DNA of 64,000 nucleotides. Source: Escherichia virus TH44. The stretch lies in sequence record MT446415.1; one strand, written 5' to 3'. The notes under the pieces were generated by a model. It was not told where the DNA came from. It searched no databases and was given only the letters and a program-made list of their open reading frames with translations. Of the stretch, positions 5,495-54,045 are shown one piece after another. The position numbers were made by a program, and so were the translations under genes. Position 1 is the first letter of the stretch. Each line of letters starts with the position of its first letter.

Positions 5495-5550
5495 CAAAAA
5501 GTAGTGTACACACCCAATGGATGGTGTATAATGAATCCATACTGAGTTAC
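5495..5550 (+). promoter_or_regulatory. T4-type early promoter cassette
   Basis: A-tract, GTGTAC, 17 bp, TATAAT; inverted repeat ATGGAT/ATCCAT flanks the -10; conserved CCATACTGAGTTACC downstream. Confidence 0.6.
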
Positions 5551-10614: not shown

Positions 10615-10845
10615 ATGTTTAATGAAGATTGTGTGACCACTTCCCTGACCGCTGAAGAGTTCTGGGAAACCGCTGAAAGTGATAAAGTGATTGTTAAGAA
10701 AAATATCAATGAATTTCTTTGCACCACTGATATCATTTATGTGTATGCGTATGAAGGTGCGGAATTACCTAGCTATGCGCTGTTCCGCGAAGAATCAGAA
10801 GATGGTACAGATTTTTGGAAGGAGACTTATCATGTTGAAATTTGA
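10615..10845 (+). CDS. hypothetical protein
   Basis: 76 aa, SD GAGGAG; preceded by ATAGGG/CCCTAT hairpin. Confidence 0.4.
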   Translation: MFNEDCVTTSLTAEEFWETAESDKVIVKKNINEFLCTTDIIYVYAYEGAELPSYALFREESEDGTDFWKETYHVEI

Positions 10846-11209
10846 AACTGATAAATGGTATTATTTTAAAGATAATGTTGCTGAAAGCAGATTCCGTTTG
10901 TTATGCTCTGATAATGATAATATAGCTGATGCTATAATCAATGGTGAAGGATTTAGACCAGTCGGAATTGAAGGCGGTGATGTATATCGGATAGAATTTT
11001 CGACCGGTGGAATAGAGAGAATATTCATAAAGGAAGATGAGCGTCGTTTCTTTGAAGAAGAAAAAGATGACGATACTGAAGATGAATGCGAAGACGCTGA
11101 TGAAGGTCAATTTGAACCCGGTGAATTCCCTTTGACCAAAATCACCATTTCTAATAACTCTGAAGCCTGGACCGTTTACCAGATGTTGAAAGCACACTTT
11201 AAGGAATAA
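10832..11209 (+). CDS. hypothetical acidic protein
   Basis: 125 aa from internal ATG with SD GGAG; strongly acidic C-terminal half (EEEKDDDTEDECEDADEGQFE). Confidence 0.45.
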   Translation: MLKFETDKWYYFKDNVAESRFRLLCSDNDNIADAIINGEGFRPVGIEGGDVYRIEFSTGGIERIFIKEDERRFFEEEKDDDTEDECEDADEGQFEPGEFPLTKITISNNSEAWTVYQMLKAHFKE

Positions 11210-38750: not shown

Positions 38751-39662
38751 ATGTCTATGTTTAAACGTAAAAACCCTGCTGACCTGGCTGCTTCCCTTAA
38801 TGCACTGAAAGGTGGTGCTGGTTTCTCTTCTGACGATAAAAAAGAATGGAAACTGAAAGATACTGATGGCGTCGGCTCTGCGGTTATTCGTTTCCTGCCT
38901 TCTAAGAATGAAGAAAATCCATCTCCATTCATCAAGCTCGTTAACCACGGCTTTAAAAATGCTGGTCAATGGTATATTGAAAACTGTACTTCTACTCACG
39001 GCGATTATGAAAACTGCCCTGTGTGTGCGTACATGAATAAGAATGACCTGTACAATACAAACGAATCCGAATATCGTAAACTGAAGCGTAATACTTCTTA
39101 CTGGGCTAACATCCTGGTCATTAAAGACCCTGCTGTTCCGTCTAACGAAGGTCAAGTATTCAAATATCGCTTCGGTAAGAAAATCATGGACAAAATCAAC
39201 CAGATGGTTGAAGTCGATGTTGACATGGGCGAAGAAGCTGTTGATGTAACTTGTCCGTTTGATGGTGCAAACTTCGTACTGAAATCTAAACTGGTTTCCG
39301 GTTATAAAAACTACGATGATTCCAAATTCATGAACCAGTCTGAAATCGCCGGCATCAATGATGAAGCATTCCAGAAAAAACTTTGGGACGACATGTCCGA
39401 CCTGAATGAATTGCTGGTATTTAAATCTCTTGAAGAGAATCAGAAGAAATTCTCTAAAGTAATGGGTACAGCTGCTCTCGGTGGTGCTGCTTCTAAAGCT
39501 GCTGCACAAGCCGATAAACTGGGCGCTGACCTGGACGATTTTGATAAAGATATGGAAGACTTCACTTCCAGCAAACCTGCTAAGTCTGAACGCACTGCGA
39601 CTGCTCCAAGCACTCCAGAGCCTTCTGATGATGGTCTTGACGACCTTCTGGCTGGCCTTTAA
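38751..39662 (+). CDS. 32: ssDNA-binding protein gp32
   Basis: 303 aa; MFKRK...[18 protein letters not shown]...[10 protein letters not shown]...[12 protein letters not shown] closely matches recalled T4 gp32; acidic C-terminal tail. Confidence 0.9.
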
Positions 39663-39667
39663 TATAA

Positions 39668-39695
39668 GGGGACCTTCGGGTCCCTTTTTTATTTT
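39668..39695 (+). terminator. rho-independent terminator
   Basis: GGGACC-TTCG-GGTCCC plus TTTTTTATTTT. Confidence 0.7.
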
Positions 39696-39696
39696 C

Positions 39697-39768
39697 AAAA
39701 AGTAGTGTACAAGCCCCTTGAGCTAAGGCATAATGATTCCATCAACTACTGATAACAACTGAGGAAAT
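39697..39768 (+). promoter_or_regulatory. T4-type early promoter cassette
   Basis: AAAAAGTAGTGTACAAGCCCCTT, 18 bp, CATAAT, GATTCCATCAACTACTGATAACAACTGAGGA. Confidence 0.6.
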
Positions 39769-39772
39769 AAAA

Positions 39773-40135
39773 ATGGAAATCGGCAAAAAATATGAGTTCA
39801 ATCCGCATCGTATTAAATCTTTCATTGGCATTAGTTCATCGAATGCTAGTATGGTCGACATCATCCAAGAAAATGGTGGTTGGTTTGAAGTTAAATCAAT
39901 ATCAAGTTTAGACGGCTATGATTATGTAACCGAAATCATTTGTGCTAATGGTGCAATCTATAATGATGATGGCATGGGTGATGATTATTTTGAACTTAGT
40001 GAAGAAGAGTTTTATTGCTTCCGTGAATACTCCAATTATACAAAAACACCTTCGGGGGCGGTTTCTATTAATTGTGTTGTAGATGCTAATAACGTCGACC
40101 AAATCATTGAACTTCTACAAAAAGCTTTCAAATAG
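39773..40135 (+). CDS. hypothetical protein, three-member paralogue family
   Basis: 120 aa; aligns along its length with 40485-40859 (GK.Y...P..K.FI...G..F.V......G.Y..E...DYFEL.E.EF). Confidence 0.5.
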   Translation: MEIGKKYEFNPHRIKSFIGISSSNASMVDIIQENGGWFEVKSISSLDGYDYVTEIICANGAIYNDDGMGDDYFELSEEEFYCFREYSNYTKTPSGAVSINCVVDANNVDQIIELLQKAFK

Positions 40136-40195
40136 CAGTTTACAATGGGTCTATGGTTGAGATACTATAGACCTATCAACTACATGAGGAAAATA
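40136..40195 (+). promoter_or_regulatory. early promoter cassette variant
   Basis: GTTTACAATG then GGTCTAT...ATAGACC inverted repeat around a -10-like TACTAT, then CTATCAACTACATGAGGA. Confidence 0.45.
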
Positions 40196-40197
40196 AA

Positions 40198-40425
40198 ATG
40201 GCTAAGGTTAATATTGATATCGTTGATTTTGAATACACTTACGAAGTTATTCGTAATCGGTATCCTTCTTTGTGTATGACTTACATTAAAGATACCCAAT
40301 TCTTTAGTATTCAAATTGAAGTTCAAGGTCCTCTTGAAGACCTTACCCGCTTTATGCAAAATGAATATTGCGAAGGGATGCACCCGGAAGACGCTAAATT
40401 TTATATGAATTTGATTGAAGCTTAA
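40198..40425 (+). CDS. hypothetical protein
   Basis: 75 aa, SD GAGGAAAA. Confidence 0.45.
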
Positions 40426-40484
40426 TATACAAACCAACGGGAACATGATAATATGTTCCCTCAATTGAATATGAGGAAATTAAA

Positions 40485-40859
40485 ATGATGGAAACTGGTA
40501 AATTTTACGTATTAGACCCTGCTGCTAAAAAACAATTCATCGCTGGTAGCCCTGATGATAATTATAATTCATGCATGGTCAAGTTGATGGAACAGCATGG
40601 CAGTTCCTTCAAAGTCCTGGATATGAGTTATATTGAAGGTGATTATTTTGTTGAAAAAGTTGAAATGAAAGATGGCACTATCCTGAATAGTATGGGTGGA
40701 CCTGATGAGTACTTTGAACTCGCTGAATGGGAATTCTGTCACTTCCTGGAAGTTGATGGCGATGCTCCTGATGTTGATACCCAAACCATTCATGTGCAAG
40801 TCAATCACAAAAATGCCGCAGAAGTCATTGCACTGATTAAAGCAACTTTTGGGGTCTAA
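40485..40859 (+). CDS. hypothetical protein, three-member paralogue family
   Basis: 124 aa; paralogue of 39773-40135; preceded by GGGAACAT/ATGTTCCC hairpin and SD. Confidence 0.5.
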   Translation: MMETGKFYVLDPAAKKQFIAGSPDDNYNSCMVKLMEQHGSSFKVLDMSYIEGDYFVEKVEMKDGTILNSMGGPDEYFELAEWEFCHFLEVDGDAPDVDTQTIHVQVNHKNAAEVIALIKATFGV

Positions 40860-40860
40860 C

Positions 40861-41115
40861 ATGACTAAAGATGATTTCCTGGATGCAGTAGAAAAAGCAA
40901 GCGAACAATTTGAAGTAATGGGTGTACGAGTTCATAAAGACAGAAATTATGGTCTGGATGTTCAAACATACTCATTATGGCTTGTTGGTGAACACAGTCT
41001 TGCAACCAATCTTGTTATGGGGGTTGATACTCATCCTTTATTAGTTAAGTTCAGAAGTATGGAAAAAGCCACCAAGGAAATGATTAAACTTGGCAAATGG
41101 CTTGATAAAATTTAA
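40861..41115 (+). CDS. hypothetical protein
   Basis: 84 aa from internal ATG. Confidence 0.4.
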   Translation: MTKDDFLDAVEKASEQFEVMGVRVHKDRNYGLDVQTYSLWLVGEHSLATNLVMGVDTHPLLVKFRSMEKATKEMIKLGKWLDKI

Positions 41116-41190
41116 AAAGTAGTGTACAACCAAATGGGGCTATGACATAATGGTCCCATACTGAGTTAACAACTAAAACACTGGAGAATA
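41113..41190 (+). promoter_or_regulatory. T4-type early promoter cassette
   Basis: AAAAAGTAGTGTACAA, 18 bp, CATAAT, GGTCCCATACTGAGTTAACA. Confidence 0.6.
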
Positions 41191-41192
41191 AA

Positions 41193-41432
41193 ATGAAATT
41201 ACAACGTGAGAGCATCAAAGATTCAGAAGTTAAAGGCAAATGGTACTTTACAATCCAGGGTAACAATCCAGAAGCTCTGGAAAAAGCTGAAGAAACTTTA
41301 TGTGCGATGGGTTGGAAAGATGAGTGTGATGGTTGTCCTCTTTATGAAGATGGTAGCTCATCTGGTTTCTGGATTCACCACTCTGATGTTGACCAATTTA
41401 AAGCTGACTGGAAAGTCGCTAAGAAAGCGTGA
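41193..41432 (+). CDS. hypothetical protein
   Basis: 79 aa, SD GGAGAA. Confidence 0.45.
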   Translation: MKLQRESIKDSEVKGKWYFTIQGNNPEALEKAEETLCAMGWKDECDGCPLYEDGSSSGFWIHHSDVDQFKADWKVAKKA

Positions 41433-41784: not shown

Positions 41785-43445
<1,661 letters not shown>

Positions 43446-53443: not shown

Positions 53444-53500
53444 TGTTTACTTTCACCACGGATGGTGTATAATGAATTTCATCAACACATGAGGAAAACA
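53444..53500 (+). promoter_or_regulatory. T4-type early promoter cassette
   Basis: GTGTTTAC, 17 bp, GGATGGTGTATAATGAATTTCATC (same variant as the 5495 copy), then SD. Confidence 0.55.
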
Positions 53501-53502
53501 AA

Positions 53503-54045
53503 ATGAGCAATTTCTTTGAAGAAGGTAAGTTTTACAAATTCGTATCCGAAAATGCCAAAAAACGCTTTGTCTCCGGTGGATGGGCAGCTAATTACCAAAT
53601 TGCTGGATATATCGGTATGACTCCGTTTGAAGTAAAGCTTGAGCCTGATAATATTAGCGGCGGTAAAAAAGTTTGTGAGATTCGTTTGATTGATGAAAAT
53701 AATTTTGTGGATTTGGCAAAAATATCTGGTGCACAAAACAGGCATCATGGAGCAATGTTTGTTTCCAATGGTCCGTTATCAGATGAATTTGAATATTTCA
53801 TCCAGGTAGAAGTTGGTGTTAAGCCAGAAGTTGAGCCCCCGCCAGCGAAACTTGCATCAGATTGGAAATTGCTTGTGGTTAAAAATGGCAAGATTGAGAT
53901 TAACTCTCGTCATGTGTCAAAAGAGCGAGCGGAAGGCGAAGCAGAGCGCCTGTTAAAAAGTGGTACTGCAGAAGATTGCTATATTATCAAAGGTGATATC
54001 ACAAAAGCTTCTATCGTTAAACAAATAAAACAGGAGACAATCTGA
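53503..54045 (+). CDS. hypothetical protein, N-terminus related to the 39773/40485 paralogue family
   Basis: 180 aa; N-terminal EEGKFYKFVSENAKKRFVSGG resembles METGKFYVLDPAAKKQFIAGS. Confidence 0.45.
   Translation: MSNFFEEGKFYKFVSENAKKRFVSGGWAANYQIAGYIGMTPFEVKLEPDNISGGKKVCEIRLIDENNFVDLAKISGAQNRHHGAMFVSNGPLSDEFEYFIQVEVGVKPEVEPPPAKLASDWKLLVVKNGKIEINSRHVSKERAEGEAERLLKSGTAEDCYIIKGDITKASIVKQIKQETI

Follow-up and report, generated by a model that had tools for sequence, protein, structure and literature searches.

Two long-diverged frd.2 genes and their predicted promoter cassettes in a T4-like coliphage

Does Escherichia virus TH44 carry a family of duplicated early genes, each with its own promoter, and, if so, which genes are they and what might they do? 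The question was raised by an original prediction made on a 64,000-nucleotide (nt) stretch of this phage (sequence record MT446415.1; the whole stretch is referred to here as the window). According to that prediction, two open reading frames (ORFs) of about 120 amino acids (aa), starting at positions 39773 and 40485, and the N-terminus of a 180-aa ORF at 53503 form a three-member paralogue family, two of whose members are directly preceded by a promoter cassette and which is of a kind typical of host-interaction or anti-defence factors. The window belongs to a Gaprivervirus-type T4-like coliphage (a myovirus), and the 3.9-kb region around the first two ORFs has 96-97% DNA identity to Escherichia phages CJ20 and VR20 and Shigella phage SP18. 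Our analysis indicates that, with good probability, these two ORFs are versions of the early gene frd.2 of T4 that separated long ago, belong to a known family and owe their present arrangement to the exchange of cassettes. This degree of confidence applies to identity, family and cassette origin jointly; function is excluded from it.

The two ORFs, hereafter frd.2a and frd.2b, aligned end to end with 32% identity and 52% positives (BLASTP E 6e-17), and the shared motifs listed in the original prediction (GK.Y, P..K.FI, G..F.V, DYFEL.E.EF and E.I.L) were all present. Their Smith-Waterman score was 142, compared with a mean of 28.1 and a standard deviation of 4.8 for shuffled sequences (z 23.6), and none of 2000 shuffles equalled it. 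The paralogy of frd.2a and frd.2b is therefore real, and chance similarity of the pair is refuted by the very control that had been named beforehand. Both proteins matched the Pfam family FRD2 (PF03197) over profile positions 1-95 of 96, Frd.2a with 121.9 bits (E 1.9e-35) and Frd.2b with 113.7 bits (E 6.7e-33), which is about fourfold above the gathering threshold of 29 bits, and both belong to PHROG 622 (E 2.7e-41 for Frd.2a against phrog_622). Given these scores, the orthologues in hundreds of phages and the purifying selection described below, there is a practically negligible chance that the similarity is accidental or that the ORFs are non-coding. What such an explanation has in its favour concerns solely the 180-aa ORF, whose pairwise similarity to Frd.2a is at chance level, and for this ORF three independent profile comparisons support homology.

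The identity of the two copies is also apparent from annotated relatives. The 2010 record of SP18 (GQ981382) names the same pair frd.2a and frd.2b, and the SP18 counterparts are 97.5% and 93.5% identical to the proteins described here. By sequence, Frd.2a is orthologous to the Frd.2 protein of T4, with 83% amino acid identity over 120 aligned residues, the main difference in length being an 8-residue acidic linker segment that is found in the T4 protein (128 aa) and is lacking in Frd.2a (120 aa). In contrast, Frd.2b is only 37% identical to T4 Frd.2 and represents a divergent Dhakavirus/Gaprivervirus type, with 78% identity to the frd.2 product of Bp7 and 87-96% to Gaprivervirus copies. The pair lies between gene 32 (38751-39662) and frd, which encodes dihydrofolate reductase, ends at 42589 and starts, as determined from the alignment with T4 Frd, at the ATG at 42008. 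This is the same location as that of frd.2 in T4; however, T4 has one copy in the order frd.3-frd.2, whereas the two copies here flank frd.3. The gene 32-frd interval is a classical, hyperplastic site for early genes that are small and non-essential. The two proteins have a strongly acidic composition, as has GoF, the net charge being -11 for Frd.2a and -13 for Frd.2b (for the N-terminal domains on their own, -11 and -10).

The position of the 180-aa ORF at 53503 in this family proved to be different. Its opening was predicted to carry the same motif as the pair, and this was true with respect to Frd.2b, with which it has a 26-residue N-terminal match (E 7e-4; Smith-Waterman z 5.8, 0 of 2000 shuffles), but not with respect to Frd.2a, to which no similarity was detected (BLASTP E 4.4; Smith-Waterman z -0.2). 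The comparison with T4 GoF gave a Smith-Waterman z of 5.9. Against PHROG profiles, the ORF matched the goF family phrog_2980 (E 3.9e-8), phrog_3710 (E 2.2e-7) and the Frd.2/GoF family phrog_622 (E 5.4e-4), and in hhalign comparisons its family was related to the Frd.2 family (E 1.8e-4, probability 48%, 91 columns) and to the GoF family (E 6.7e-5, probability 64%), in both cases through the N-terminal part only. The GoF/Frd.2-like domain covers approximately residues 5-115, and the C-terminal 75 residues are unrelated. No Pfam family was matched at E values up to 1 and the FRD2 threshold was not reached, so that the ORF does not qualify for annotation as Frd.2. These profile comparisons suggest that the 53503 protein is a distant superfamily relative, about equally near to GoF and Frd.2, rather than a third 120-aa paralogue. 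It would consist of the barrel domain described below joined to a different C-terminus. Proteins of this type were confined to Gaprivervirus (82-91% identity) and Dhakavirus (45-47%), apart from N-terminal matches in Serratia and Erwinia phages. The AlphaFold2 model of the protein was poor (predicted local distance difference test, pLDDT, 49); nonetheless, its order of secondary structure elements agrees with that of Frd.2a. A search of BFVD from this low-confidence model was interpretable only for the three targets that were also found with Frd.2a.

The remaining part of the 53503 protein deserves a separate remark. Residues 121-180 (53863-54045) are predicted to form a beta-beta-alpha-beta unit with a pLDDT of 76-85, and in a joint alignment its segment WKLLVVKNG stands opposite the strand TKI-TISNN / TKIHCIVDE of GoF and Frd.2. 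The C-terminal domain may be an elaborated form of the C-terminal element of the family, although hhalign gave no support for this equivalence.

Three members are also not the full count. Two further relatives had been overlooked in the original prediction: a GoF homologue of 125 aa and a 249-aa ORF resembling MotB.1. With these and the 53503 protein, a probable distant member, the family would have at least five members in 64 kb, not three. Both surfaced only with T4 GoF and T4 MotB.1 as queries and with a combined family profile, whereas pairwise and single-family HMM searches of the 316 window ORFs of at least 50 aa with Frd.2a, Frd.2b, 53503 and the A1 and A2 profiles gave no members other than the obvious ones. 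The relationship between GoF and Frd.2 was evident from the comparison of their families by hhalign (probability 89%, E 2.2e-6, 111 columns), in which the match was full-length and included a common C-terminal strand-helix. For MotB.1, no sequence-level link to the other members was detected by Smith-Waterman comparison (z 0.4 or less), and the combined profile matched the first repeat of the MotB.1-like ORF with an E value of 0.024. This ORF contains two tandem N-terminal barrel domains, which open with IEINKTYQL and IKVDKTYQL and form an internal repeat (BLASTP E 3e-5), followed by a C-terminus that is common to MotB and MotB.1; in contrast, T4 MotB.1 (119 aa) has one copy of the barrel. When 1.84 billion representative proteins were searched exhaustively by HMMER with the combined profile, the matches fell into only 81 clusters, defined at 50% identity. 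Some of these clusters carry two or three tandem domains, and domain fusions among the 81 clusters were uninformative, the longer matches being tandem repeats or having no Pfam domain. A match of the family profile to a 3152-aa bacterial surface protein with leucine-rich and immunoglobulin-like repeats (E 1.5e-11) was rejected as spurious because its score sums 18 weak matches to a repeated NGxYxFKxYD motif. At the gof locus itself, the GoF homologue overlaps the preceding cef homologue (10615-10845) by 14 nt, both being on the plus strand. The longest-ORF call at 10691-11209 (172 aa) overextends GoF; judging from the alignment with T4 GoF and 40 homologues, translation most likely begins at the ATG of position 10832 (MLKFETDKWYYF).

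No PDB chain was related by sequence to the family, and the structural information comes from models. In the AlphaFold2 model of Frd.2a (pLDDT 87), strands run through residues 6-9, 37-46, 49-57, 62-64 and 83-85, with a pair of helices inserted after strand 1 and before strand 2 and a further helix (108-119) at the C-terminus, so that the structure prediction suggested as a check in the original prediction yielded a five-stranded barrel. The fold of Frd.2a and Frd.2b is modelled as an SH3/LSm-like five-stranded barrel. The nearest solved fold was the FeoA-type SH3-like domain, DtxR-type SH3-like domains and Tudor-like small beta-barrels being further close systems, and the model differs from canonical Sm/LSm/Hfq proteins, which have an N-terminal helix before five strongly bent strands and Sm or Hfq as the nearest structural neighbours. 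When the model was compared with viral models by Foldseek, 59 matches at E 1e-3 or better were obtained, several per T4-like genome, and these included VR7 GoF (3.9e-5) and T4 MotB.1 (4.7e-4). Taken together, Frd.2, GoF and MotB.1 are a Tevenvirinae-specific family of small acidic proteins with a predicted N-terminal SH3/LSm-like five-stranded barrel. The common architecture would be a barrel with two inserted helices, completed in Frd.2 and GoF by the C-terminal strand-helix. A GoF/MotB.1/Frd.2 family of 210 sequences, with a predicted LSm-like N-terminal barrel whose nearest solved folds are of the FeoA type, has been described (Kim et al. 2025, PMC12152347). Our results agree with that description in the predicted barrel and in FeoA as the nearest fold, reproduce the GoF-Frd.2 homology by hhalign, and suggest that the 53503 ORF may be fitted in as an extra branch by way of its N-terminal domain.

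How did one phage come to have two copies of frd.2? Synonymous sites between frd.2a and frd.2b are saturated (proportion of synonymous differences, pS, 0.76), and thus the duplication is old; a recent tandem duplication was rejected on account of this saturation and because either copy is more closely related to genes of other genera than to the neighbouring copy. The order of genes between 32 and frd is informative in this respect. It is frd.3-frd.2-frd.1 in T4, 2a-frd.3-2b-orf84-frd.1 in the window, CJ20 and VR20, 2a-2b-orf84-frd.1 in SP18, and 2b-orf84-frd.3-frd.1 in ECML-359, a phage of the same genus, and in the Dhakavirus Bp7. In these orders, orf84 accompanies frd.2b in SP18, ECML-359 and Bp7, and frd.3, which lies between both frd.2 copies here and is 69-70% identical to T4 Frd.3, is not present at this site in SP18 and is found downstream of orf84 in ECML-359 and Bp7. 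The b-type allele (60% identity or more) is carried by Dhakavirus and Gaprivervirus phages, in 66 records altogether, compared with only 26 records for the a-type allele (90% or more). Some Gapriverviruses, such as VR25 and ECML-359, have no frd.2a, and most Tequatroviruses carry an allele merely 46-50% identical to Frd.2a.

The divergence from T4 of frd.2a and of its neighbours, with synonymous divergence (dS) given throughout as pairwise Nei-Gojobori estimates, points in the same direction. Protein identity to T4 and dS were 83% and 0.66 for frd.2a, 63% and 1.24 for gp32, 65% and 3.3 for frd, 72% and 1.23 for frd.1, and about 69% and 0.89 for frd.3. That frd.2a is nearer to T4 than its neighbours are suggests lateral exchange, and the simplest reading of the sequence comparisons suggests that frd.2b and orf84 were the module already in place and that lateral transfer brought in the a-type cassette. 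Accordingly worded, frd.2b and orf84 would be resident Dhakavirus/Gaprivervirus genes and frd.2a would be a T4-type allele present in some Gapriverviruses. Compared with Bp7, the segment comprising frd.2b, orf84, frd.3 and frd.1 (40485-41432) showed dS of 0.43-0.79 and identity of about 79-94%, and the flanking core genes showed dS of 1.33 with 70% identity (gp32) and 3.5 with 61% identity (frd). The gene 32-frd interval thus appears as a mosaic exchanged between genera. Two other frd.2-like copies are adjacent in the Mosigvirus ATK47 (L006), in which an unannotated frd.2-like ORF (2201-2560), 41% identical to Frd.2b, immediately precedes the frd.2 gene of the annotation (2592-2984); this means that the doubling of frd.2 arose or was retained in at least two genera. 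Both copies in the window are kept by purifying selection, as the gene-wide pairwise ratio of nonsynonymous to synonymous divergence (dN/dS) was 0.17 against T4 and 0.32 against SP18 (with few changes) for Frd.2a, and 0.13-0.15 against SP18, ECML-359 and Bp7 for Frd.2b.

The differences in gene order are accompanied by differences in what precedes each gene. The cassette GTTTACA...GGGTCTAT is located before frd.3 here and directly before frd.2b in SP18, and the gene-32 promoter unit is located before frd.2a here and directly before frd.2b in ECML-359. The rearrangement breakpoints therefore lie inside the units formed by promoter and Shine-Dalgarno (SD) site. The original prediction of promoter cassettes was borne out with regard to the sequence features that go with each gene, but not in their number, since sigma-70/T4-early-like sites were found 30-40 nt before the start codon of all three flagged ORFs and not of two. 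Just upstream of the AT-rich tract and of the promoter-like site of frd.2a, before its -35 hexamer, stands the terminator hairpin of gene 32. In the unit before frd.2b, the stem-loop at 40439-40460 (-11.9 kcal/mol, z -2.4) carries the -10 hexamer at its tip and has a perfect inverted repeat (GGGAACAT/ATGTTCCC). The unit before frd.3 has a 13-bp stem-loop (40145-40176) over the -10 hexamer (-17.8 kcal/mol, z -3.4), and that before frd.1 has a 10-bp stem-loop (41134-41159) over the -10 hexamer (z -2.5). The promoter-like unit of the 53503 ORF has no significant stem-loop (fold z +0.63). An 11-mer core of the -35 region, GTAGTGTACAA, occurs in nine copies in the window with at most one mismatch, compared with 0.78 expected, and all nine (at 5501, 8863, 18992, 20207, 20620, 23211, 39702, 41119 and 50939) are on the plus strand. 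This core is probably the mark of an early-promoter unit repeated across the window. The coordinates of these units and of the genes are given in Table 1.

Table 1. Genes and regulatory features of the window considered in this study
Feature	Position	Strand	Basis or remark
frd.2a, 120 aa, isoelectric point (pI) 4.28	39773..40135	+	Pfam PF03197 FRD2, phrog_622
frd.2b, 124 aa, pI 4.42	40485..40859	+	Pfam PF03197 FRD2
180-aa ORF, phrog_5804 (E 1.4e-67)	53503..54045	+	pseT-cd interval
GoF homologue, 125 aa	10832..11209	+	T4 GoF phmmer E 4.7e-15; phrog_622 E 1.7e-29
MotB.1-like ORF, 249 aa	9184..9933	+	T4 MotB.1 phmmer E 7.3e-16; phrog_2333, phrog_3710
frd.3, 75 aa	40198..40425	+	Pfam PF05798 Phage_FRD3 E 9.2e-37
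orf84, 84 aa, phrog_4423	40861..41115	+	start 1 nt past the frd.2b stop
frd.1 (DUF5417)	41193..41432	+	Pfam PF17438 E 1.5e-35; neighbouring cassette
Gene 32 terminator hairpin, GGGGACC-TTCG-GGTCCC and T run	39666..39687	+	9 pairs; also in the RNA fold
Sigma-70/T4-early-like site, TGTACA-N17-CATAAT, after AAAAAGTAG	39706..39734	+	upstream of frd.2a
PeSL-like cassette before frd.3, TTTACA-N16/18-GATACT/TACTAT	40139..40176	+	scan and fold
PeSL-like cassette before frd.2b, weak TATACA-N15-GATAAT (40426-40452)	40426..40460	+	hexamers and fold
PeSL-like cassette before frd.1, TGTACA-N17-CATAAT	41123..41159	+	scan and fold
Predicted consensus T4-early-type promoter, GTTTAC-N17-TATAAT	53445..53473	+	upstream of the 53503 ORF

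Units of this kind have been described. Promoter-early stem-loop (PeSL) cassettes were defined in RB49 and phi1 and were proposed to mediate the modular shuffling of small ORFs in T4-type phages (Arbiol et al. 2010, PMC2839356). The anatomy of a PeSL was recognized in the units at 40139-40176, 40426-40460 and 41123-41159. As in the PeSLs, an AT-rich tract, a sigma-70-like promoter, a stem-loop over the -10 hexamer, and an SD site with ATG are present, the units flank small non-essential ORFs in a hyperplastic region, and relatives (SP18, ECML-359, Bp7 and T4) differ by whole ORFs with junctions that, by comparative inference, lie inside the units. However, the stems here are mostly not of the GGGG...CCCC type, and the unit before 53503 is a promoter-like site that lacks a significant stem-loop. 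Each gene would therefore be a self-contained module of a promoter (with a stem-loop), an SD site and an ORF, corresponding to a PeSL cassette, and the two-copy state would most likely result from insertion of a cassette by recombination at the promoter/stem-loop elements.

Several points weigh against this interpretation of the locus and of the family. A generic sigma-70 scan of the region gave 15 sites, compared with 12.2 expected from shuffles, which is no enrichment, and sites of the form TGTACA-N17-CATAAT were not matched by a strict T4 early promoter pattern. What supports the predicted promoters is therefore their position, their conservation and the recurrence of the GTAGTGTACAA core rather than the scan statistics; the site predicted for frd.2b is a weak one with a spacer of 15 nt. 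The argument for lateral transfer from dS is made on 120 codons, and strong codon constraint could mimic the same pattern. The N-terminal domain of the 53503 protein was modelled with low confidence, at the pLDDT given above, and the hhalign probabilities that connect it to its relatives are 48-64%. In addition, as far as function is concerned, the link of the family to mRNA metabolism comes from one gain-of-function mutant of GoF.

This mutant, GoF(D25Y), stabilizes gene 41 mRNA post-transcriptionally and lengthens the life of a reporter RNA carrying the gene 41 5' untranslated region, whereas wild-type GoF and MotB.1 have no effect on the reporter RNA, and D25Y was read as a gain of function (PMC12152347). 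The same study reported that GoF is abundant early in infection, that GoF and MotB.1 also give dimer-size bands in non-reducing sodium dodecyl sulfate-polyacrylamide gel electrophoresis (SDS-PAGE), and that frd.2 amber mutants of T4 have a plating efficiency near 1 (PMC12152347). In a transcriptome-wide dCas13d knock-down screen, frd.2 was the sole T4 gene of unknown function that was scored 'Fit', with a weak effect (log2 fold change 0.83, p 0.027) compared with that of gene 32 (3.3), and frd.3, frd.1 and frd were not fit (PMC11879866). With these data in mind, the Frd.2 proteins would be produced from sigma-70 promoters of the host within the first few minutes after infection, the barrel would bind a host or phage macromolecule, and the probable outcome, by analogy with GoF, would be an altered fate of mRNA or altered gene expression, with the proteins being dispensable under laboratory conditions. 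The function that we tentatively put forward, as a possibility that falls short of being probable, is that they are early takeover proteins whose partner is a protein, of host or phage, with a part in RNA handling or gene expression. With a net charge of -11 to -13, they are more likely to bind protein than RNA. Protein partners are also usual for SH3/Tudor-like barrels.

It was speculated in the 2025 study of the family that its members act on RNA directly (PMC12152347), that is, as Hfq/LSm-like oligomers that bind phage or host RNA as chaperones and alter its stability or translation. The predicted bent five-stranded barrel, which resembles LSm folds (PMC12152347), the longer half-life of the gene 41 leader reporter RNA with GoF(D25Y), and the dimer-size bands of GoF and MotB.1 are consistent with this idea. 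However, the strong acidity of the two proteins (pI 4.28 and 4.42, net charge -11 and -13) speaks against the RNA-binding reading favoured there (PMC12152347), wild-type GoF and MotB.1 are inactive on the reporter and the active form is read as a gain-of-function mutant, and the helices are inserted between strands 1 and 2 rather than being N-terminal as in Sm/Hfq proteins. Direct RNA chaperoning is therefore quite improbable for the Frd.2 proteins. It is very improbable that they modulate transcription by binding RNA polymerase, in which case the barrel, similar to Tudor/CarD-RID domains, would contact the beta subunit and alter elongation or Rho-dependent termination.

The anti-defence role that had originally been predicted would mean that the host has variants of an immunity or abortive-infection protein and that each copy neutralizes a different one, or determines host range, and this would explain both the duplication and the allele diversity. 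The genes lie behind predicted early promoters in a hyperplastic region, at least five family members are present in the window, and copy number differs among close relatives; moreover, T4 frd.2 is dispensable on laboratory strains, and the alleles fall into classes that differ deeply (about 35%, 50% and 80% identity) and are spread across genera and not by phylogeny. Small acidic proteins are also common among phage inhibitors. In contrast, the gene-wide dN/dS of 0.13-0.3 obtained from related phages, a comparison that had been suggested as a check, indicates purifying and not diversifying selection. Family and fold searches, which were general and did not include a library specific to anti-defence proteins, gave no relative of known function and returned only families of unknown function or 'goF mRNA metabolism modulator'. 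No informative domain fusion was found, nor was any experimental link in the literature consulted. The inference of host interaction or anti-defence was thus left without support by these results, and we regard such a role as unlikely.

A related and rather improbable possibility is that the five barrel proteins are rapidly reshuffled acidic decoys or inhibitors, each directed against a different host protein of nucleic acid handling or immunity. If this were true, candidate targets would include Rho, RNA degradosome components or an abortive-infection system directed at RNA, possession of both Frd.2 allele classes would widen the host range for control of mRNA fate, and the swapping of alleles across genera would be the footprint of conflict.

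The family, the gene names, the fold and the cassette mechanism are already known from the literature or databases, and in this respect the present finding, which re-identifies a Pfam family, a pair named in a 2010 record and a superfamily described in 2025, is of little import. Its value is that of a worked example of one T4-like genome that probably has at least five members of the barrel family, two Frd.2 allele classes and one new C-terminal domain, with copies that appear to have been exchanged as promoter-ORF cassettes across genera. The example also illustrates that, given the acidity of these proteins, a direct RNA-binding model should not be taken for granted. Since no T4 gene of unknown function other than frd.2 was scored 'Fit' in the knock-down screen (PMC11879866), a phage with two diverged copies would be a reasonable system in which to seek the function of this family.

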